Positions 3,635-33,666 of a stretch of DNA of 64,000 nucleotides are shown here, in pieces. The stretch is from positions 152,752 to 216,751 of the forward strand of contig JAFGPW010000004.1 of NCBI GenBank assembly GCA_016935985.1, read 5' to 3'. Position 1 is the first letter of the stretch; every line of letters starts with the position of its first letter. This DNA comes from Candidatus Woesearchaeota archaeon. Lineage in GTDB: Archaea; Nanobdellota; Nanobdellia; Woesearchaeales; JAFGPW01. The notes beneath the pieces are model-generated. The model searched no databases. It was given only the letters and a program-made list of their open reading frames with translations, and was not told where the DNA came from. Position numbers and translations under genes: made by a program.

Positions 3635-3661
3635 TCCCCTCCCGATGTGCGTCGCCGATAG

Positions 3662-3680
3662 AAATATTTATAAATAACTA
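3662..3680 (+). promoter_or_regulatory. Archaeal BRE/TATA-like element (gaaatatttataaataact) for the RHH-pilB-pilC operon
   Basis: An AT-rich TATA box in otherwise GC-rich DNA, about 80 nt upstream of the first RHH GTG start codon; the predicted TSS lies near 3700. Confidence 0.45.
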
Positions 3681-3700
3681 AATTAACATATCCTAGTAAA

Positions 3701-3736
3701 GGAGCTTAGTTTGATTAACTAACTTAACTAAGCTCC
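3701..3736. repeat. 11-bp perfect inverted repeat GGAGCTTAGTT(n14)AACTAAGCTCC with internal TTAACTAA direct repeats; candidate operator
   Basis: Read directly from the sequence. It sits at the predicted TSS, between the TATA box and the RHH start codon. Confidence 0.6.
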
Positions 3737-3756
3737 CGCGACGAGGCGCGATCGGC

Positions 3757-3891
3757 GTGGGACGCATCAACATCGAGCTCGAGGACGAGGTCCATCGGAA
3801 GATACGCGCGGTTTCTGCCCTCAAGGGCATCACGCTCATCGAGTACATCAACCAGGCGCTGAAAGAGAGTGTGGGACAGGAGAGGATTTGA
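3757..3891 (+). CDS. Small ribbon-helix-helix (CopG/antitoxin-like) DNA-binding protein, 44 aa, GTG start
   Basis: VGRINIELEDEVHRKIRAVSALKGITLIEYINQALKE matches the beta-strand plus two-helix RHH pattern. A second copy follows immediately. Confidence 0.5.
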   Translation: MGRINIELEDEVHRKIRAVSALKGITLIEYINQALKESVGQERI

Positions 3892-4026
3892 GTGGGACGC
3901 ATCAACATCGAGCTGGACGACGCGGTGCACCGCAAGGCGAAGGCCGTCTGCGCGCTCAGAGAGATCACGCTCATCGAGTTTGTCAACCAGGCGCTGAAAG
4001 AGAAGATCGCGAAGGAGAAGATATGA
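3892..4026 (+). CDS. Small RHH-like protein, tandem paralog (about 68% identical to the upstream copy), GTG start, stop overlaps the ATPase start (ATGA)
   Basis: VGRINIELDDAVHRKAKAVCALREITLIEFVNQALKEKIAKEKI; it lies in a different frame from the ATPase, and the ORF-track 3888 start is an artefact. Confidence 0.5.
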   Translation: MGRINIELDDAVHRKAKAVCALREITLIEFVNQALKEKIAKEKI

Positions 4027-6317
4027 TGGCACTGTTCGGAAACAACCCGAAACCCGACTCGTATGAGATCGTCCGCGAGGGCGACGAGGACATCATGCGC
4101 ATCGACTATGAGGATGCGACGATACTCCCCTCTATCGAGGACAACCCCGTCGTGATGGGCAGGACGATCGACAAGCTGATGGAGTCGCCGAACGTCTCGA
4201 AGATCGTCTTCATCCAGAAGCGAGACTATGAGTACGACTTCGCCCAGACCCAGGTGCTCGCCGAGATCGCCCGCCTCTACAAGCAGCTGATCAAGCAGCG
4301 CGACCTCGTCGGCTACCAGGCGGTCGCCGGCGGCAGGGGACGGATGGCGGATGCGCGCTACACGCGCCTCCAGAACATCATCATGAACCTGATGAAGACT
4401 GACCCTGTCGGCGCCTACATCGAGCTCAAGCGCTTCGCGAGGAATGAGCGCATCGAGATGCAGAAGACAATCGAGACCGAGCACACCCGGCAGATGAACC
4501 GCTTCGTCCAGGTGCTCGACTACATCGTCGAGAAGCTCGAGGCGACGAGGCTCATCACGCTCGCGCGGCCGCACATCGCCGGCTATGAGGTGGGCGACCG
4601 CAGCGTCTACCGCAGGATCTTCACCCCGTTCATCAAGCCGGACTTCATGTTCACCAAGCTCATGTCGACCTACCCCGTCGACGCCGAGGAGATGGCGAAC
4701 TACACCGTCGGCGACGACATCGAGATTACGATCTTCAAGCAGCCGGACAACGTGCAGTACATCTACCATGTCATCCCGCCGGAGTTCAAGCTCGACGAGG
4801 ACAAGTACGAGCTGCTCGACATGGCGCGAAAGATCATGGCCGAGCACAAGCCCAAGAAGAGCGAGTTCGTGGACCCCAAGCGCATGCGCCAGGTGTTCTT
4901 CAACGTCGGCCACGACCTCCTCGAGGAGCTCGCCGATTACAAGAACATCCGCATGCGGGGCAAGGATCTCGACAAGCTCACGAACATCCTGGTCAGGTAC
5001 ACCGTCGGCTTCGGCCTCATCGAGGTGCTCCTCGCCGACGAGAAGATCCAGGACATCTCCATCAACTCACCCATGGGGAAGATCCCCATGTTCATCGTGC
5101 ATGGCGACTTCGACGACTGCACGACGAACATCGTGCCCACCCGCACCGAGGCGGAGAGCTGGGCGTCGAAACTCAGGCTCATTTCAGGCAGGCCCTTGGA
5201 CGAGGCTGATCCGATTCTGGACACCGAACTCGAACTCCCCGGAGCGTCCACACGCGTGTCAGTGATTGCTCCCCCACTCAATCCAACGGGCCTTGCCTAT
5301 TCTTTCCGGCGGCACCGCGACCGGCCGTGGACGCTGCCCCTCTTCATCAAGAACAGGACCATCAACGACCTCGCGGCGGGCCTCTACTCGTTCCTCATCG
5401 ACGGGACGAGGGCGATGCTGATCGCCGGCACCAGGAGCTCGGGCAAGACCTCGTTCCTCTCCGGGCTCCTCATCGAAATCATGCGGCGCTACAGGATGAT
5501 CACCATCGAGGACACGCTCGAGCTCCCCACGGGGTCCATGCGCGACCTCGGCTTCAACATCCAGCCGATGAAGGTCGCGAGCGCGCTCGCGCGCGGCGGC
5601 ACCGAGATGGACGCGACCGACGGCATCAGGTCGACGCTGCGCCTCGGCGACTCGGCACTGATCGTCGGCGAGGTGCGCAGCAAGGAGGCGGTGGCGCTCT
5701 ACGAGGCGATGCGGGTCGGCGCCGCCGCGAACGTCGTCGCCGGCACCATCCACTCCGACTCCCCCTACGGCGTCTTCGACCGCGTGGTGAACGACATAGG
5801 TGTGCCGAAGACGTCCTTCAAGGCGACCGACATCATCACCGTGGTGAACCCCATCAAGAGCGCGGACGGCATGCACAAGTTCCGCCGCGTCCTCTCCATC
5901 ACCGAGGTGCGCAAGTTCTGGAACGAGGATCCAGTGGCGGAAGGGGGCTTCGTCGACCTCATGAAGTACGACGCGCGGCAGGATACGCTCGTCCCCACCG
6001 ACGAACTCGTCAACGGCGATTCGGAGTGCCTCAAGACGATCGCGGGCAACGTCCGCGACTTCGCCGGCAACTGGGACGCGGTCTGGCAGAACATCCAGCT
6101 CCGCGCGAACATCAAGAAGGCGATCGTCGACGTCGCCGAGCAGTACAGCGACCCCGAGCTCCTCGAGGCCGAGTTCGTGATACGCTGCAACGACGCCTAC
6201 CACATCATCGCCGAGCGGGTGAAGGAGGAGACCGGCGTCTTCGACAACGACCGCATCTTCTACGAATGGATGGAGTGGCTGAAGCGGGACATCAAGAAGC
6301 GAAAGATGATAACGTGA
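4023..6317 (+). CDS. Type IV pilus/archaellum-family secretion ATPase (FlaI/PilB/VirB11 superfamily), unusually long at 764 aa
   Basis: Walker A motif GTRSSGKTSFL, Asp box and Walker B motif (ITIEDTLEL), and the His-box region. An N-terminal extension and a ~170-aa C-terminal extension flank the FlaI-like core. Confidence 0.8.
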   Translation: MMALFGNNPKPDSYEIVREGDEDIMRIDYEDATILPSIEDNPVVMGRTIDKLMESPNVSKIVFIQKRDYEYDFAQTQVLAEIARLYKQLIKQRDLVGYQAVAGGRGRMADARYTRLQNIIMNLMKTDPVGAYIELKRFARNERIEMQKTIETEHTRQMNRFVQVLDYIVEKLEATRLITLARPHIAGYEVGDRSVYRRIFTPFIKPDFMFTKLMSTYPVDAEEMANYTVGDDIEITIFKQPDNVQYIYHVIPPEFKLDEDKYELLDMARKIMAEHKPKKSEFVDPKRMRQVFFNVGHDLLEELADYKNIRMRGKDLDKLTNILVRYTVGFGLIEVLLADEKIQDISINSPMGKIPMFIVHGDFDDCTTNIVPTRTEAESWASKLRLISGRPLDEADPILDTELELPGASTRVSVIAPPLNPTGLAYSFRRHRDRPWTLPLFIKNRTINDLAAGLYSFLIDGTRAMLIAGTRSSGKTSFLSGLLIEIMRRYRMITIEDTLELPTGSMRDLGFNIQPMKVASALARGGTEMDATDGIRSTLRLGDSALIVGEVRSKEAVALYEAMRVGAAANVVAGTIHSDSPYGVFDRVVNDIGVPKTSFKATDIITVVNPIKSADGMHKFRRVLSITEVRKFWNEDPVAEGGFVDLMKYDARQDTLVPTDELVNGDSECLKTIAGNVRDFAGNWDAVWQNIQLRANIKKAIVDVAEQYSDPELLEAEFVIRCNDAYHIIAERVKEETGVFDNDRIFYEWMEWLKRDIKKRKMIT

Positions 6318-6373: not shown

Positions 6374-8614
6374 ATGCCTGAGATAGAGAGGAAGGAGATC
6401 GAGGATATCCTGAAGAAGTACCAGCGCAAGCTCGACGAGGATCTTGGCGAGGAGGAGGTGACCGCCGAAGTCAGGCCCGGGAGCTCCCGCGAGTACCGCC
6501 AGTTCAAGACCGAGATACTGCCGCCGCACATGACCGCCTATGAGACGCTGTGCAACCTCTCCGAGAGGATAATCAAGATACCCCCCGACAGGAGGAAGGA
6601 GGCGAGGCTCCTCGAGTCAATCGAGACCTGCCATCTCAACATCACGCCCACCGGCGTCACCACCTTCGCGATGGTCCTCCCGGTCCTCGTGCTCGTTCTC
6701 GGGTCCGGCATCTCCTTCCTCGTCTACGAGGAGGTCTTCTTCACCCTGTTCTTCGCGATTATCGCGGTCTCTCTCATCTTCCCGCTCTCGAACCTCCCTC
6801 ACACCCTCGCCGAGCGATGGCGGATGCGCGCCTCGAACGAGATGGTCCTCTCGATATTCTACATCGTGACGTACATGCGCCACACCTCGAACCTCGAGCG
6901 CGCCATCAACTTCGCGGCGGAGCACCTCAACGGCCCGCTCGCGCTCGACCTCAAGAAGGTCGTCTGGAACGTCGAGACCGAGAAGTACGAGTCGATCAAG
7001 GAGTCGCTCGACATGTACCTCGAGAGCTGGCGCAAGTACAACCTTGAGTTCATCGAGGCGTGCCACCTCATCGAGTCCTCGCTCTATGAGGGGTCGGAGG
7101 ACCGGCGCCTGCTGATGCTCGACAAGGCGCTCGCCGTCCTCCTCGAGGAGACGTACGAGAAGATGCTCCACTACGCGCAGAACCTCAAGAGCCCAATCAC
7201 GACGCTCCACATGCTGGGCATCATCCTGCCGGTGCTCGGCCTCGTCATCCTGCCGCTCGTCGTGAGCTTCATGGAGGGCGTCAGGTGGTACCACATCGCG
7301 ATGCTGTACGACGTCGCGCTCCCGGCGATCGTCTACTATATGGGGAAGAGCATCCTCGGGACGCGCCCCACCGGCTACGGCGAGGCGGACATATCGAAGC
7401 ACAGGCGCATGAAGAAGTACCGGGATATCCTCATCACCATCGCCGGCTTCGAGATCAGGCTCTCGCCGCTCTGGTTCGCTGTCATCATCTTCGCCGTGTT
7501 CTTCCTCCTCGGCCTCTCGCCCATCATGCTCAACGCGATGAACTGCAACTTCGACTACGTGGTCGCGTCGGAAGGCTCGAAGACCGTCTTCAAGACCGTC
7601 TTCTCCGACACGCCGCAGTGCGACGGCGTCGTCGAGCCGACGGCGACCTTCTACTTCCTCGGCTACCGCGAGGCCCAGAAGCCGGACGAGGAGTCAGGAG
7701 AGATACGGCCGATCGGCCCGTTCGGGTTCGGCGCCGCGGTCCTCTCGGTCTTCATCCCGGTGGCGCTGGGGATCGCCATTGGCTTCTATTACAAGAAGCG
7801 CTCGCAGAACCTGATCAAGATCAGGAAGGATGCCAAGCAGCTCGAGGACGAGTTCGCCTCAGCCCTCTTCCAGCTGGGCAACCGGCTCGGCGACGGGCTG
7901 CCTGCCGAGATCGCCTTCGACAAGGTGGCGGAGGTCATGGCCGACACCAAGTCCGGCGCGTTCTTCTCGATTGTCTCGGGCAACATCAAGAAGATGGGCG
8001 TCGGGGTCGAGCAGGCGATCTTCGACCCGCAGTTCGGGGCGATGAAGTACTACCCGTCGAACGTCATCGAGTCGAGCATGAAGGTGCTCATCGAGAGCAT
8101 CAAGAAAGGCCCGCAGATCGCGGCGCAGGCGCTCGTGAACGTATCGCAGTACATCAAGGAGATGCACCGCGTGGAGGAGCGGCTCAAGGACCTCCTCTCT
8201 GACATCATCTCGTCGATGAAGTCGCAGATCAGCTTCCTTACCCCAGTGATCGCAGGGATCGTCGTCGGCATCACGGCCATGGTCTCCGGCATCCTCGGCC
8301 AGCTCCAGATCCAGATGGCGCAGATCGCGGCCAAGACCGAAACCGGCGTGGGCTCGATCGTGTCGCTGTTCGGCGACGGGATCCCGACCTACTATTTCCA
8401 GGTCATCGTCGGCATCTATGTCGTCTCGCTCGTCTACATCCTGACCGTCATCACGAACGGCATCGAGAACGGGCAGGACAAGCTCAACGAGCGGTTCCTT
8501 CTCGGCAGGAACATGACCAAGAGCACGATGCTGTACACCGTCGTCTCGACGGTGATCATGCTGCTGTTCAACTTCATCTCCTCGCAGATACTCTCCGCGA
8601 CGCTCGCGCCATGA
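6374..8614 (+). CDS. FlaJ/TadC/PilC-like polytopic membrane platform protein (two T2SS-F-like domains), 746 aa
   Basis: Two repeated cytoplasmic helical domains, each followed by TM helix clusters. It lies immediately downstream of the ATPase, and a purine-rich SD-like stretch precedes the ATG. Confidence 0.75.
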   Translation: MPEIERKEIEDILKKYQRKLDEDLGEEEVTAEVRPGSSREYRQFKTEILPPHMTAYETLCNLSERIIKIPPDRRKEARLLESIETCHLNITPTGVTTFAMVLPVLVLVLGSGISFLVYEEVFFTLFFAIIAVSLIFPLSNLPHTLAERWRMRASNEMVLSIFYIVTYMRHTSNLERAINFAAEHLNGPLALDLKKVVWNVETEKYESIKESLDMYLESWRKYNLEFIEACHLIESSLYEGSEDRRLLMLDKALAVLLEETYEKMLHYAQNLKSPITTLHMLGIILPVLGLVILPLVVSFMEGVRWYHIAMLYDVALPAIVYYMGKSILGTRPTGYGEADISKHRRMKKYRDILITIAGFEIRLSPLWFAVIIFAVFFLLGLSPIMLNAMNCNFDYVVASEGSKTVFKTVFSDTPQCDGVVEPTATFYFLGYREAQKPDEESGEIRPIGPFGFGAAVLSVFIPVALGIAIGFYYKKRSQNLIKIRKDAKQLEDEFASALFQLGNRLGDGLPAEIAFDKVAEVMADTKSGAFFSIVSGNIKKMGVGVEQAIFDPQFGAMKYYPSNVIESSMKVLIESIKKGPQIAAQALVNVSQYIKEMHRVEERLKDLLSDIISSMKSQISFLTPVIAGIVVGITAMVSGILGQLQIQMAQIAAKTETGVGSIVSLFGDGIPTYYFQVIVGIYVVSLVYILTVITNGIENGQDKLNERFLLGRNMTKSTMLYTVVSTVIMLLFNFISSQILSATLAP

Positions 8615-8739
8615 GCAGGGGACGGGCGGCGGCAGGACGATAAGGAGGAAGGGGGAAACGGGGATGAGAACCGACGGTTCCGTCCGTTGAGACCGAAGGC
8701 CGGCATGCGCAGCACGCAGCCGACCGAAGAAGAAGGGAG

Positions 8740-8813
8740 TGGGAACGCGGGGATTTGAACCCCGGACCCCTACGTCTTCAGCGTAGTGCTCTCCCAGTCT
8801 GAGCTACGTTCCC
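8740..8813 (-). tRNA. tRNA-Phe (GAA)
   Basis: The reverse complement folds as a cloverleaf with acceptor GGGAACG/CGUUCCC, anticodon loop CUGAAGA, T-loop TTCAAAT and discriminator A. It is 74 nt long. Confidence 0.85.
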
Positions 8814-26505: not shown

Positions 26506-26618
26506 GGACCTGTAGCCCAGCCTGGATAAGGCGCCGGCCTTCTACGCGAGGATCGGAGCTCTCGGGCTCTCCTTGCAAAGAGAGCCGGAGATCGGGGGTT
26601 CGAATCCCTCCAGGTCCA
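26506..26618 (+). tRNA. tRNA-Arg (UCU) with a ~38-nt intron at the canonical 37/38 position
   Basis: Acceptor GGACCTG/CAGGTCC; anticodon stem CCGGC/GCCGG with loop C-U-UCU-A interrupted by the intron; T-loop TTCGAAT; discriminator A. A TATA box (tttataaa) lies ~30 nt upstream. Confidence 0.7.
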
Positions 26619-26673: not shown

Positions 26674-26799
26674 GCGGGGGTAGCCAAGCGGCTAAGGCGA
26701 TCGGCTGCAGAGCCGGTACCGCGATCGGTACGACGGGTCCTGCGGGACGATGACTGCGCTGATACCGATTATTCGGGGGTTCGAATCCCCCCCCTCGCT
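26674..26799 (+). tRNA. tRNA-Cys (GCA) with a ~53-nt intron at the 37/38 position
   Basis: Acceptor GCGGGGG/CCCTCGC (one G-U pair); anticodon stem ATCGG/CCGAT with loop C-U-GCA-G then the intron; T-loop TTCGAAT; discriminator U, the Cys identity element. An oligo-T tract follows. Confidence 0.65.
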
Positions 26800-30049: not shown

Positions 30050-30217
30050 GTGAGATGATGGGGCGCTCCTGAAACTGCAGGATGAGGGATTCCTCGCGGT
30101 TGCAATCGGCCTCGTCGCTGCAGTGGCGTGCGCTGTGCCCCCAATCCCTAGGGAGATGTACCGGCAAGCCGCCGAGGAAGATGGATATGATGGTGAGAGC
30201 ACATGAGAGATGACCAC

Positions 30218-30739
30218 ATGAGCAAAGCAGTGGCCCTGCTGGCGATCGCGCTCCTCGCGGCTCCTGCAGCGGCCGCGGTGCCGCCGATAGCGATGGAGAT
30301 TTATGGCGGGATCACGATCGACGGCGAGGACGCGATCGAAGGGATCCTCGTAGAGGCGTACGGCGAGGACGGCCGGCTCTGCGGCCGGTTCGTCGTCGAA
30401 GTGCCGGGAAAATACGGCCTGCTCTCCTGCAATGCCGACGATCCCGACACCGAGGAGGACGAGGGAGCGTCGCCGGGCGAGGCGATCGTGTTCAGGATCA
30501 ATCGGCAGGCGGCCGTCGCTGAGCGGCAGGTCCTCTTCGAGGCAGGAGAGTTCGCTGAGGTGAGGCTTGCCGCGTCGCTCCCTGACGGCCAGCAGCCGTT
30601 TATGGAGGTGCCGGCAGACGATGAGGGCGGCGCGCCATGGAAGACCATCTTCGTCGCGATCATCGTCGTCCTCGCCCTCATCGTATGGAACAAGCGGCTC
30701 GAGCTCCGGATAAAGGATCTCACCAGGAAACGCGAATGA
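30218..30739 (+). CDS. Secreted, C-terminally anchored protein carrying the shared N-terminal module (IYGGITIDGEDA..GRFVVEVPGKYGLLSCNAD..EDEGASPGE)
   Basis: Signal peptide MSKAVALLAIALLAAPAAAA; a C-terminal TM helix plus a basic tail; the stop overlaps the next start (ATGA). Confidence 0.6.
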   Translation: MSKAVALLAIALLAAPAAAAVPPIAMEIYGGITIDGEDAIEGILVEAYGEDGRLCGRFVVEVPGKYGLLSCNADDPDTEEDEGASPGEAIVFRINRQAAVAERQVLFEAGEFAEVRLAASLPDGQQPFMEVPADDEGGAPWKTIFVAIIVVLALIVWNKRLELRIKDLTRKRE

Positions 30740-33666
30740 GGAAGAGCAGCTCACAGCGGACCGTGCAGGCGATCTTGGTAGCAGTCGCCCTCATCATGGT
30801 CATGCGTCTCGCCTCGGCGGTGCCGCCGATACCTGCGTCCTTCTCAGGAACGCTCACCATCGACGGCGCGAACGCGCCTCCCGGCACGAACGTATCGGCG
30901 TTCGACCCCGACGGCGTGATGTGCGGCCAGTTCATCTCCACTGTCGTCGGCTTCTACGGCCTGCTCGACTGCGAGGGCGACGACACGGACACCGGCCCTG
31001 ATGAGGGAGCCGAGGACGGCGACACGATAACATTCTACGTCGACGGCGACCTCGCGGACGCCGTCGGGAGCACGACCTGGACCGCAGGAGGGTTCCCGGT
31101 GGCGAACCTGAACGCGCAGAACGACCCGCCGACGATTTCGTCGATATCCGGGCTCTCGGGGACCGTGCCGGCAGGCTCCCTGCAGACCGTCGACTCGGTG
31201 ACGAGCGACCCGAACCCGACCTTCGGGACTAAGGACCAGGTGCGGCTCATCATCTGCACGACGAACTCCGCGTCTGACGGCTCCGGCTGCGACGCCGCGA
31301 CCGTCTGTAGCGGCGCGCTCGCCGCCGACGACCCGAGCTGCTCATTCAACGTCGAAGGCAGCACCGGCTCCTGGACGCGCTACGTCTTCGCCATGGACGA
31401 GCACGACGAGGTCTCGCTCTCATCGCGGCAGCTCACCTATTCGACCGACGGATCGCCGCCCTCGATCACGGGCATCACGCCGACGAACAACTCCTGGCAG
31501 AACGCGACCCCGCTCCCGCTCAACGTCAACACCGACGAGAACGGCTGGTGCAAGTACGACTTCGCCGTGGGGATCGCGTTCGCGGCTAAGGCGAACCTCA
31601 TGACCGGCGGCGGGTCATCGGCCCACGATGGCAACGTCGCGCTCGCGCCGGGGAACAACGATTTCTACATCCAGTGCAACGACACTTTCGGCAACGTCAT
31701 GGCGCTCGCCGACGAGGTCCACCACCGCCTCCGGTACGATGACGCTAACCCCACCTCCGGCGGCGCGACCGTGTGGATCGACGGCGGCGACCCGAACAGC
31801 ACGATCGGGAACGTCTACGTCAACTGGACTGGCTTCACCGACGCGCAGTCGGGCATCATGGGCTACTACTACAACACCGCCAACAACCAAGGAACGATCG
31901 GCGGGACCTACACCGCGAACACCTTCGCGAGCATGGCCCTGCCTGAGGGCGCGGCGCCCGCGGTCTACGTCTGGCCGATTGACATTTCCTATCGCATCGG
32001 AAACGCCGCGTCAGACACCATCATGGTCGACCTTACCCCACCCACCCTCTCCAATTGGGCGGAATCGCCGCCTGACCTCAACTCGAGCTCACCCGAGAAC
32101 TTCACCGTGTCGGTGACCGCGGCAGATGCGGTCTCAGGCCTCAACGGCAGCCCCCAGCTGCGGTACCGCAGGGGGAGCTACGACTCCTCATACACCTCCT
32201 GGCAGACGATGTCAGGCGCCGGCCCCTCTTACAGCCATACCATCCCGCAGCCGACCGGCGGCTGGTTCACGATCATCGACGAGTATGTCTATTACCAGGT
32301 CAGGGTCTGGGACCGCGTCGGTTGGAACCAGACGACCGGCATCCTCTCCGAGCGCGTGAACCGCATGAACTACCCGCCGGTCTTCGACGCGATCGGCAAC
32401 AAGGTCGCCCAGGAGGACGAGCTCATCTGGTTCTATATCCATGCTGCCGACAACGACAACGACACGCTCGCCTTCACGAGCAACCTCTCCGTCCTTTCCA
32501 TCGCCACTGTGAATCGGACCACCGCGAACGTCAGCTGGACGCCCGGCTACGCGTACAACGGCGACAACCATATCTATTTCACCGCGGATGACGGGACCGT
32601 CGCCGTGAACTCCTCGACGGTCAACATCTGGGTGAACGCGACGAACGATGCCCCTGTGCTCGCAACGATCGCTGACCAGACCGTCTACGTGCACGAGGAG
32701 CTGAGCATCCAGGCCATGGCGACCGATGAGGACAACGAGACGATCACCTATCATCAGGATCCCGGCTCGAGGAGCGTCTTCAGAATCGATCCGGCGACAG
32801 GGTGGATCAACTTCACCGCGCTCCTCGGCTATGTCGGACGCCGGAACGTCACCATCTACGCCTCCGACGGGAAGGTCAACGACTCCGAGAACTTCACGCT
32901 CACAATCTACTACTGCGGAGATGACATCTGCAACACGAACGAGAACTGCTCGTCCTGCCCGCAGGACTGCGGCAGCTGCAGCTCCCAGCGCCCTGACCGG
33001 CTCGCCATTGTCATCCAGCCGCGCAACTGCCTGAACCAGACCATGCTCATCAAGGTGTATGACATGACGGTGCGTGCGAACTGCACGACGATGGGGCTGA
33101 TCTATGAGGGCTATGAGGTGTGCGGCAACCTGAGCGATGTCGGGCTCACCATCTCCATCAAGGACGAGGGAACCGGCACCTACAACGAGAGCGCGGAGCT
33201 CTCCACCGACGATCTCGGCGAGGCGACATTCACGCCGATGATCCCCGGCCACTATCGGATCGTCGCGAAGAAGTCGGACTATCCCGACACCCTGATGCAC
33301 TTCGAGGCCGACTACTGCTACGCCAACGAGACGCTCAACGAGACGACGGCGCCGGCGGCCGTGAACCAGACCGGCGAGCCCACGACGGAGCCCGCCACGA
33401 AGCCGCCGGAGACCGAGGGGCCGGAGGAGGTTCTCCCCAAAGAGGAGACGAGCCTCTTCCTCTTCATCCTGTACTATGTCATCATCCCGATACTCCTCCT
33501 CTCGCTCTTCACCGCGAGCGCCTGGTACTACCAGAAGGAGAAGGACAACAGCATCGCGATCCTGAAGGCTCGGATATCGGTGAAGCGCCAGTACCTCGTG
33601 CTCGCGAAGTACGCCGAGTACTACTGGCACCTGCTCCTCGAGAGGATCGGGCTCGGCAAGAAATGA
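30736..33666 (+). CDS. Large (976 aa) secreted surface protein: shared N-terminal module, a long beta-rich N-glycosylation-rich region, a Cys-rich segment (YYCGDDICNTNENCSSCPQDCGSCSS), a Thr/Pro-rich stalk, and a C-terminal TM anchor
   Basis: Signal peptide cleavage after ASA; the shared module FSGTLTIDGANAP..GQFISTVVGFYGLLDCEGD..PDEGAEDGD; C-terminal LFLFILYYVIIPILLLSLFTASAWYY. Confidence 0.65.
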   Translation: MRKSSSQRTVQAILVAVALIMVMRLASAVPPIPASFSGTLTIDGANAPPGTNVSAFDPDGVMCGQFISTVVGFYGLLDCEGDDTDTGPDEGAEDGDTITFYVDGDLADAVGSTTWTAGGFPVANLNAQNDPPTISSISGLSGTVPAGSLQTVDSVTSDPNPTFGTKDQVRLIICTTNSASDGSGCDAATVCSGALAADDPSCSFNVEGSTGSWTRYVFAMDEHDEVSLSSRQLTYSTDGSPPSITGITPTNNSWQNATPLPLNVNTDENGWCKYDFAVGIAFAAKANLMTGGGSSAHDGNVALAPGNNDFYIQCNDTFGNVMALADEVHHRLRYDDANPTSGGATVWIDGGDPNSTIGNVYVNWTGFTDAQSGIMGYYYNTANNQGTIGGTYTANTFASMALPEGAAPAVYVWPIDISYRIGNAASDTIMVDLTPPTLSNWAESPPDLNSSSPENFTVSVTAADAVSGLNGSPQLRYRRGSYDSSYTSWQTMSGAGPSYSHTIPQPTGGWFTIIDEYVYYQVRVWDRVGWNQTTGILSERVNRMNYPPVFDAIGNKVAQEDELIWFYIHAADNDNDTLAFTSNLSVLSIATVNRTTANVSWTPGYAYNGDNHIYFTADDGTVAVNSSTVNIWVNATNDAPVLATIADQTVYVHEELSIQAMATDEDNETITYHQDPGSRSVFRIDPATGWINFTALLGYVGRRNVTIYASDGKVNDSENFTLTIYYCGDDICNTNENCSSCPQDCGSCSSQRPDRLAIVIQPRNCLNQTMLIKVYDMTVRANCTTMGLIYEGYEVCGNLSDVGLTISIKDEGTGTYNESAELSTDDLGEATFTPMIPGHYRIVAKKSDYPDTLMHFEADYCYANETLNETTAPAAVNQTGEPTTEPATKPPETEGPEEVLPKEETSLFLFILYYVIIPILLLSLFTASAWYYQKEKDNSIAILKARISVKRQYLVLAKYAEYYWHLLLERIGLGKK

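Follow-up and report, generated by a model that had tools for sequence, protein, structure and literature searches.

Background

CopG, omega and ParG are minimal ribbon-helix-helix (RHH) proteins whose genes lead their operons and which repress their own expression. Here we describe a comparable arrangement on an archaeal chromosome: two abutting genes, RHH1 and RHH2, each encoding 44 amino acids (aa) and lying directly upstream of a secretion ATPase gene of the type IV pilus class, in a stretch of 64,000 nucleotides (nt) from a Candidatus Woesearchaeota archaeon (GenBank assembly GCA_016935985.1, contig JAFGPW010000004.1, positions 152,752 to 216,751 of the forward strand; hereafter the window, in whose own numbering coordinates are given). 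We consider it probable that RHH1 and RHH2 are a paralogous pair of CopG/ParG/omega-like autoregulators, likely repressors, which bind heptads (TAACTWA) in their own promoter and control a pilus-like operon. In full-text literature searches we met no earlier account of RHH genes from Woesearchaeota or from archaeal type IV pilus loci, nor of the family to which these two belong, and the main survey of archaeal type IV pilus loci describes several associated regulators, no RHH protein among them, and leaves DPANN archaea unmentioned (PMC4858521). What is new is thus the TAACTWA operator candidate and a lineage-specific RHH family; the type of regulator is well known, and the current view of how RHH regulators work is unchanged by the finding.

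CopG (RepA) of pMV158 resembles the window proteins in being an RHH-only protein (45 aa) encoded first in its operon, copG-repB, and it represses its own promoter from a site that overlaps it. CopG-family chains are among the matches of the profile that we built for the RHH1/RHH2 family, and the related pRN1 ORF56 is among both profile and fold matches; sequence similarity to CopG itself is not significant. CopG, however, comes from one gene, binds a 13-bp pseudo-palindrome as a homodimer or tetramer, and controls a bacterial plasmid replication initiator, whereas the window has two paralogous genes, a TAACTWA array, a presumed archaeal TATA promoter and a pilus-type ATPase operon. ParG of TP228 (parFG / parH) is the closest solved homologue by both sequence (E 1.8e-7) and fold (TMq 0.88, root-mean-square deviation (rmsd) 1.0 Å), and it shares a conserved His and an A-C-A motif in helix A. 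As part of PMC3130281 describes, ParG binds arrays of short degenerate boxes with AT-rich spacers and autoregulates an operon that also encodes an ATPase. It differs in serving plasmid partition and in having a flexible tail at its N-terminus, through which it acts on ParF, a ParA-type ATPase, whereas the window proteins have no tail, the ATPase beside them is of the secretion/pilus (T2SSE/FlaI/CpaF) class, and the locus is chromosomal. Omega (pSM19035) and MetJ are RHH dimers with cooperative binding to short units in tandem, which for omega are 7-bp heptads, direct or inverted, and for MetJ 8-bp metboxes. Omega chains match our family profile weakly, and the window likewise has 7-bp TAACTWA units, direct and inverted, with 9-bp phasing; the sequence and period of the repeats are different, however, omega and MetJ are encoded by single genes, and MetJ needs a co-repressor.

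An archaeal locus with two RHH-domain genes before a structural NTPase gene is CdrL-CdrS-ftsZ2 of Halobacteria, in which cdrS and ftsZ2 are co-transcribed and their upstream promoter is bound by CdrL; CdrS is reported absent from DPANN (PMC7439475). CdrS and CdrL differ from the window pair in coming from distinct RHH clades rather than being recent paralogues, in the extra zinc-ribbon domain of CdrL, and in their cell-division target. AmrZ of Pseudomonas aeruginosa, an Arc-like RHH transcription factor recovered by our Foldseek search (3qoq), has type IV pilus-dependent twitching among its targets. Its regulation of motility and virulence genes is described in part of PMC3325190. Unlike RHH1 and RHH2 it is a bacterial global regulator, encoded apart from the pilus genes and made larger by extensions at both termini. 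TraY of the F plasmid is one polypeptide with two tandem RHH repeats that make a pseudo-heterodimer, and so is the fused counterpart of a would-be RHH1/RHH2 heterodimer; fused relatives of the window family, with 2-4 modules, exist as well. TraY, however, is fused, bacterial and a relaxosome accessory protein, whereas the window modules are separate genes whose pairing is putative.

Two abutting small genes ahead of the ATPase

RHH1 (3757..3891, + strand, VGRINIELEDEVHRKIRAVSALKGITLIEYINQALKESVGQERI) and RHH2 (3892..4026, + strand, VGRINIELDDAVHRKAKAVCALREITLIEFVNQALKEKIAKEKI) both start with GTG. An earlier, sequence-only reading of this DNA had noticed two consecutive 44-aa open reading frames (ORFs) of about 68% identity with such starts, and they are present there, identical at 30/44 positions (68% identity, 86% positives, BLASTP E 1e-22). 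No gap separates the RHH1 stop (TGA, 3889-3891) from the RHH2 GTG at 3892, and the RHH2 stop (4024-4026) overlaps the ATPase ATG (4023-4025) in an ATGA at 4023-4026, an overlap that the same reading had described and that we see in the sequence. Shine-Dalgarno-like purine runs lie ahead of all three starts: GAGG (3743..3746, +) 10 nt 5' of the RHH1 GTG, AGGAGAGG (3878..3885, +) within the 3' end of RHH1 and 6 nt 5' of the RHH2 GTG, and AAGGAG (4012-4017) before the ATPase; the first two would be expected to act in ribosome binding.

GC content at third codon positions (GC3) is 0.80 in RHH1 and 0.89 in RHH2, compared with 0.84-0.94 in neighbouring genes, and the codon log-likelihoods per codon are +0.59 and +0.82, every other frame being negative or close to zero. 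Divergence between the two copies is concentrated at third codon positions (identity 88/79/60% at positions 1/2/3). A second, independent assembly of this organism (locus L103) has gene calls at both positions, P0001 and P0004, P0001 being identical to RHH1. Homologues in dozens of metagenomic contigs share the N-terminal start MGR[IV]NIE, and the protein is kept, with its N-terminus fixed, across genomes of 26-60% GC. Because gene-like GC3 and codon scores, third-position divergence, independent gene calls and a conserved N-terminus are found together, RHH1 and RHH2 are more than chance ORFs: they are real genes. One might still suspect chance open frames in GC-rich DNA, or the 5' leader of the ATPase mRNA, given that the ORFs are very short with GTG starts and that high-GC DNA is rich in spurious ORFs, overlapping examples of which are present on both strands. 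The restriction of gene-like codon bias to these frames, the conservation of the protein over so wide a range of base composition and the significant RHH profile and structure matches effectively refute that suspicion, to which we give next to no credence.

A mechanical ORF, 3888..6317, opens at a TTG in the ATPase frame, which is not the frame of RHH2. Over 3892-4023 the RHH2 frame has GC1/2/3 of 0.59/0.27/0.89, as opposed to 0.91/0.58/0.28 and a codon log-likelihood of -1.40 per codon in the ATPase-frame extension, which is a non-coding composition, and the alignments of ATPase homologues begin at residue 1-15 counted from the 4023 start. The extension to 3888 is therefore an artefact, as the sequence-only reading had held, and the comparison of codon usage and third-position GC places the coding signal in the RHH frames, with none in the alternative ATPase frame. 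The DNA of RHH1 and RHH2 is 75% identical, with identical runs of 16-23 nt, and the window copies (~68-69%) are unusually alike compared with six other pairs (31-64%), a likeness that could reflect gene conversion or the effect of strong GC3 codon bias alone.

Minimal ribbon-helix-helix proteins

RHH1 and RHH2 are, as predicted from sequence and model, minimal, bare RHH domains of CopG size. RHH1 matches the Pfam family ParD (PF09386) with E 3.4e-6 and 27.8 bits against a cut-off of 27.3, over profile positions 1-37 of 80, which is the N-terminal part. The Pfam matches of RHH2 are weak and below the cut-offs (ParD, ParG, VapB and PSK_trans_fac, E 4e-3 to 1e-2), and both copies match ParG, HicB, VapB and PSK_trans_fac weakly, all of them RHH families; NCBIfam gave no match for RHH1 and at best a weak RelB/DinJ match for RHH2. 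A family profile built from an alignment of 61 members matches ParG (1p94) with E 1.8e-7 over the ParG RHH domain, residues 31-75, and an archaeal-virus RHH protein (2kel) with E 4.9e-4, with weaker matches to ParD, omega, RelB and CopG-family chains. The AlphaFold2 monomer model made with the family alignment (pLDDT 89.8) has an extended N-terminus and helices at 10-22 and 27-40, and its leading Foldseek matches are all RHH proteins: Arc (TM 0.80-0.85), ParG (TMq 0.88, rmsd 1.0 Å), PutA, CopA, pRN1 ORF56 and AmrZ. We assign the RHH fold because the ParD match at threshold, the match of the family profile to ParG and the AlphaFold model with Arc and ParG as best structural matches all point to it; the strand and two helices that the sequence-only reading had called RHH-like are borne out by the same evidence.

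The N-terminal strand, G-R-I-N-I-E-L in RHH1 and kept in RHH2, alternates polar and hydrophobic residues as the RHH ribbon does. It is followed by helix A (10-22), an inter-helix turn that reads K-G-I-T in RHH1 and R-E-I-T, with no Gly, in RHH2, and helix B (27-40); RHH2 has Cys20 where RHH1 has Ser20. Three residues of the strand, R3, N5 and E7, should point toward the DNA. RHH1 and RHH2 do not differ in them, and they hardly vary across the family, R3 and N5 being invariant or nearly so; such constancy fits one conserved DNA target.

The best Pfam and NCBIfam labels belong to antitoxin families (ParD, VapB, HicB, RelB/DinJ), and the sequence-only reading had allowed for an antitoxin-like regulator, yet it is highly improbable that RHH1 and RHH2 are type II toxin-antitoxin antitoxins of the ParD, VapB or RelB type. 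The match is limited to the N-terminal RHH part of ParD, and the 44-aa proteins stop where a toxin-binding tail would begin. No toxin-like gene is adjacent, the neighbours being a CxxCxxCC protein upstream and the 764-aa T2SSE-family ATPase downstream; synteny with the ATPase and its platform protein is kept in 12 loci, and the surrounding genes are housekeeping (aminoacyl-tRNA synthetases, RFC, MscS). We accordingly reject the antitoxin reading, for want of a toxin gene and a C-terminal toxin-binding tail and in view of the ATPase synteny. RHH1 and RHH2 belong to the RHH superfamily but stand outside the ParD antitoxin and ParG partition families, because the extra features that define those families are absent.

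A protein search with the single RHH1 sequence matched 3 proteins; the profile search of 1.84 billion representatives returned 46 clusters at E <= 1e-10 and 2146 at E <= 1e-3. Among the distant relatives are single polypeptides of 2-4 tandem RHH modules (P0076 and P0091 with four, P0078 with three, and P0080 and P0087 (86 aa), P0068 and P0096 with two), a multi-module repeat architecture that could merit separate study.

A pair conserved upstream of the ATPase

Synteny was assessed with a family hidden Markov model run on six-frame translations, a DNA scan with the ATPase, a metagenome scan and exact-protein look-ups. The six-frame search found two tandem family copies directly upstream of the ATPase in L002, L007 and L012, and the metagenome scan and look-ups added L081, L098, L102, L106, L107, L108, L109 and the P0012 contig. 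Together with the window (same organism as L103) these are 12 independent loci, and in 12/12 the orthologous ATPase, or its conserved neighbourhood, is immediately preceded by family genes, exactly two in number, which abut or overlap in every one. The duplicated RHH genes of the sequence-only reading thus have RHH profile matches to their credit, and 11 further independent ATPase loci show the small ORFs in conserved synteny. Gene finders left copy 1 uncalled at L106:501-620 and L109:3532-3660, and the family, like small RHH genes generally, is under-annotated in public assemblies.

Position 20 is Ser or Ala in copy 1 at 11/12 loci and Cys in copy 2 at 10/12, and one clade has copy-specific C-terminal tails (KRMKKWEE, RRMNKWEE and similar); from these copy-specific residues and tails it follows that the duplication is older than much of this radiation. 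As a universal copy marker Ser20/Cys20 was dropped, there being exceptions in L108 and L109. An invariable pair of abutting or overlapping genes would favour equimolar synthesis, and one may ask whether RHH1 and RHH2, rather than making two homodimers, bind DNA as an obligate heterodimer that splits between two genes what TraY, a single-chain tandem RHH protein, has in one. The partly copy-specific residue 20 and the tails of one clade would suit such a dimer, as would the non-palindromic heptad and the existence of natural polypeptides with 2-4 fused RHH modules among distant relatives. Both copies nevertheless carry the same DNA-reading strand, so that homo- and heterodimers would read one site; single-copy family members at other loci must act as homodimers; and the Ser/Cys signature is broken in L108 and L109. 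On balance we treat the obligate heterodimer as a possible but doubtful refinement, and we know of no separately encoded obligate heterodimeric RHH repressor that would serve as precedent.

The other ATPase loci with enough upstream sequence (n=69) carry at this place either a single gene of a different kind, which we call family B (23 loci), or neither family (46 loci). Family B proteins (~46-56 aa, MKKPISATIDxxLIKWIxxELKD..YRNKSHLIEIAL) are encoded directly upstream of the orthologous ATPase in 25/80 loci, among them L003, L005 (e.g. L005:331-498), L016, L018, L023 and ~20 further; the gene of 23 of the 69 reads MKKPISATID...NKSHLIEIAL, and the family has a strand-helix-helix-like pattern. 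Comparison of family B with RHH proteins gave no Pfam match, a weak full-length match to CopG (E 0.73) and an hhalign probability of 5% against the RHH1/RHH2 family, and its promoters carry a different recurring AT-rich motif, ATATTATAAAATAT.

Outside ATPase loci, the RHH1/RHH2 family occurs in single, double or triple tandem copies before large proteins; these have N-termini of signal or class-III-like type, domains of the Laminin_G_3 or CARDB families, or long coiled coils. On the low-GC DPANN contigs L104 and L105 (e.g. L105:284-409, 3869-4129), successive operons are each headed by 1-2 small RHH genes, with genes for giant Laminin_G_3 or coiled-coil surface proteins (850 to >1850 aa) after them. 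The distribution suggests a family-wide link of RHH genes to surface-protein expression. Because the family heads operons of giant secreted or pilin-like proteins that have no ATPase, we favour a transcription-factor role over that of a dedicated ATPase subunit. The latter deserves mention: the closest solved homologue, ParG, is both an autorepressor and an ATPase partner, as parts of PMC3130281 and PMC7308502 describe, and the RHH genes are strictly adjacent to, and probably translationally coupled with, the ATPase gene, so that the RHH proteins might tether or stimulate the ATPase, as ParG does ParF, instead of or besides regulating it. That seems very unlikely. The window proteins are bare RHH domains without the ~30-residue N-terminal tail of ParG, the alignment covering ParG 31-75 only; the ATPase is a hexameric secretion ATPase and not a ParA; the family also heads operons without any ATPase; and 46/69 related ATPase loci have no detectable RHH-like gene from either family.

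A candidate operator in the promoter region

The intergenic region before RHH1 (3635-3756, 122 bp) is AT-rich, with GC down to 0.37-0.45, and contains a TATA-like box, TTTATAAATA (3667..3676, +), the presumed archaeal promoter of the operon. Operator-like site 1 (3675..3687, +) overlaps the 3' end of this box and holds TAACTAA (3675-3681) within the 13-mer TAACTAAATTAAC. Site 2 (TAACTAACTTAACTAA, 3716..3731, +), 41 nt from site 1, holds heptads at 3716 and 3725, at 9-bp spacing, with an overlapping TAACTTA at 3720; two copies of the 13-mer TAACTAAnTTAAC lie 41 nt from each other. As a whole, the heptad array reaches from the 3' edge of the box to within ~30 nt of the RHH1 GTG. TAACTAA has 3 occurrences in the 64-kb window, counting both strands (0.42 expected), and all three, at 3675, 3716 and 3725, lie between the TATA-like box and RHH1. 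The palindrome upstream of the genes that the sequence-only reading had pointed to is there as well, a perfect 11-bp inverted repeat (GGAGCTTAGTT / AACTAAGCTCC, 3701..3736, +; 14-nt gap, 100% complementary), and contains an inverted pair of the heptad core.

Such arrays recur with the family. All 12 loci tested have 2-7 TAACTWA units within 170 nt 5' of their first family gene, with a shuffle P <= 0.002 in 11; L108 and L109 carry arrays as well, and the GC contents concerned range from 26 to 60%. In the 69 ATPase loci without the RHH family, the equivalent region holds 4 heptads in total, though it is more AT-rich. Heptad spacings cluster at 9, 18 and 9n+5, in direct and inverted orientation, and across loci a heptad typically abuts a TATA-like box: TTTATAAATA or TTTATTAATA followed by a heptad is present also in L012, L081, L098, L102, L108 and L109. 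On this comparative evidence, we regard the TAACTWA array as a candidate operator of RHH1 and RHH2, and the idea that the pair regulates the pilus-like operon, first put forward in the sequence-only reading, now has a conserved operator-like heptad array behind it.

We infer DNA binding at the heptads, the sign of regulation, co-transcription and translational coupling; the TATA box, the transcription start and the operon structure are likewise presumed. In the mechanism that we propose, RHH dimers would insert their shared two-stranded ribbon (G-R-I-N-I-E-L, with R3, N5 and E7 facing DNA) into the major groove at the TAACTWA heptads, and occupancy of the heptads would hinder TATA-binding protein (TBP), transcription factor B (TFB) and RNA polymerase. 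The pair would most likely be a repressor of its own promoter, because occupied sites should stand in the way of these factors, and the resulting negative feedback would set the level of the pilus-type ATPase and the platform protein, as CopG does for copG-repB and ParG for parFG; we extend the feedback to ATPase and platform in view of the close packing of the four genes (0-nt gap, ATGA overlap). Archaeal repressor sites usually lie at or 3' of the TATA box and block the pre-initiation complex. Repression is the likelier sign because sites so placed, as those here are, act in this way, and because CopG, omega and ParG do so too; repression of the CopG/omega/ParG type is treated in parts of PMC3130281 and PMC3413123.

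That the pair instead activates the operon, or forms a repressor/anti-repressor couple in which one copy antagonises the other, we judge unlikely. Four loci (the window, L012, L081 and L108) have heptads that begin at the TATA-like box or immediately 3' of it and run toward the start codon, the usual position for an archaeal repressor, and minimal RHH proteins that lead their operons, such as CopG, omega and ParG, are autorepressors. On the other side, two copies of equal DNA specificity could compete for sites; the heptads of L098, L102 and L109 are far upstream of the coding region; and RHH factors can activate, AmrZ being both activator and repressor of virulence genes, as part of PMC3325190 describes, and the archaeal CdrS an activator of ftsZ2 (PMC7439475).

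Several points weigh against autorepression through the heptads, which remains our preferred account. The heptad is AT-rich and sits in AT-rich promoters, and our statistics and controls oppose chance, not another binding factor. Its geometry is non-uniform: in L098, L102 and L109 a long conserved leader comes between the heptads and the first gene, and the distance upstream is 130-330 nt. The choice between repressor and activator is drawn from site position only, and a 44-aa RHH protein has no sensor domain for modulation. Of a pilus machinery the operon holds only the ATPase and the platform, with no pilin gene found beside it, so that "pilus" is a family-level label.

The 5' leader of one clade holds a conserved element, GAAAGACCCCCAATCTTCGACAAC, between the heptad array and the first RHH gene (L098:4760-4830, L102:4880-4950, and a variant in L109, in the ~130 nt that precede copy 1), which is absent from the window. 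In the window, 3692-3762 folds as RNA with -24.4 kcal/mol (z -2.58), and the 11-bp palindrome would form a hairpin if transcribed; the palindrome is not conserved in other family loci. Rfam reported nothing but tRNAs in the window and nothing in the leader, and a sigma-70 promoter scan, a model inapplicable to archaea, found nothing.

The operon and its neighbourhood

RHH1, RHH2, the ATPase and the membrane platform appear to form a four-gene operon, with junctions of 0 nt (RHH1/RHH2) and -4 nt (RHH2/ATPase). The ATPase (4023..6317, +, ATG start) has 764 aa with a ~300-aa N-terminal extension and is a secretion ATPase of the type IV pilus/archaellum class (FlaI/TadA/CpaF-like). It matches Pfam T2SSE (3.7e-13), and its scores against the NCBIfam FlaI and TadA models fall far short of the equivalog cut-offs, which places it in a distinct subfamily; the closest solved relatives in the PDB are the A. 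fulgidus GspE-like protein 2oap (2e-25), CpaF (7e-24) and FlaI (1e-15). A scan of one genome per species found ATPases 59-69% identical at 80 loci, nearly all labelled Woesearchaeota or Nanoarchaeota, some other labels being evidently erroneous. The last gene of the operon (6374..8614, +) encodes a polytopic membrane protein of 746 aa, the presumed TadC/FlaJ-like platform, whose Pfam T2SSF match is weak and sub-threshold (E 0.017, 15.5 bits against a cut-off of 25.2); it is syntenic with the ATPase in 69 related fetched loci and 55-59% identical among those listed at the top. A crude regex scan of all window ORFs found no convincing pilin adjoining the operon; pilins may be encoded elsewhere, and prepilin peptidase was not searched for.

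Two coiled-coil proteins of 224 and 162 aa (1614-2288 and 2369-2857, both - strand) are encoded divergently from the ATPase operon. Their genes keep this position in 55 and 66 fetched related loci, respectively, and because of that conservation they are probably part of the same machinery as the ATPase. Between them and the RHH pair lies a CxxCxxCC gene (PF03692, 2969-3634, +), which is at this place only in this organism (window and L103), no other locus having one; the RHH promoter here has thus ceased to double as the divergent promoter of the coiled-coil genes.

A tRNA-Phe gene (8739-8813, -) comes directly after the platform gene in order. We rejected a mobile-element reading of the operon, which abuts this tRNA gene but has housekeeping neighbours, the ATPase/platform/coiled-coil cluster being conserved in 55-69 related loci; over the wider window the chromosome carries housekeeping genes (aminoacyl-tRNA synthetases, RFC, MscS). 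Two further tRNAs found by Rfam and missed by ARAGORN (26506-26618 and 26674-26799, +) are 113 and 126 nt long, lengths that fit archaeal intron-containing tRNAs. The stretch 30203-33666 (+) encodes a protein with a signal peptide and another of 1009 aa containing Big_9 and Cadherin-like domains, which look like a candidate surface adhesin; no TAACTWA heptads are near them. With a GC3 of 0.84-0.94 and an overall GC of ~0.6, compared with 30-53% GC in related Woesearchaeota/Nanoarchaeota loci, the window is an unusually GC-rich member or neighbour of this group.

Significance

DPANN archaea are mostly uncultured and host-dependent, and little is known of their gene regulation. The ATPase and platform pair is conserved across Woesearchaeota/Nanoarchaeota and is plausibly part of an attachment apparatus. 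A more far-reaching scenario, which we think rather unlikely, would have a naturally split, obligate heterodimeric RHH1/RHH2 repressor that reads the non-palindromic TAACTWA as an asymmetric dimer, in a DPANN-specific family that runs a surface and host-attachment regulon; if true, that regulon would take in the pilus-type ATPase operon, giant adhesin-like proteins and pilin-like proteins in episymbiotic archaea. The analysis yields a family of ~45-aa regulators that annotation often misses or leaves "hypothetical", a concrete candidate for their operator motif (TAACTWA with ~9-bp phasing), and a rule that wherever the family accompanies the ATPase operon there are always two paralogues (12/12 loci). 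The pair offers a simple natural system in which to ask why RHH paralogues stay paired, and an entry point to the regulation of surface structures in DPANN archaea.

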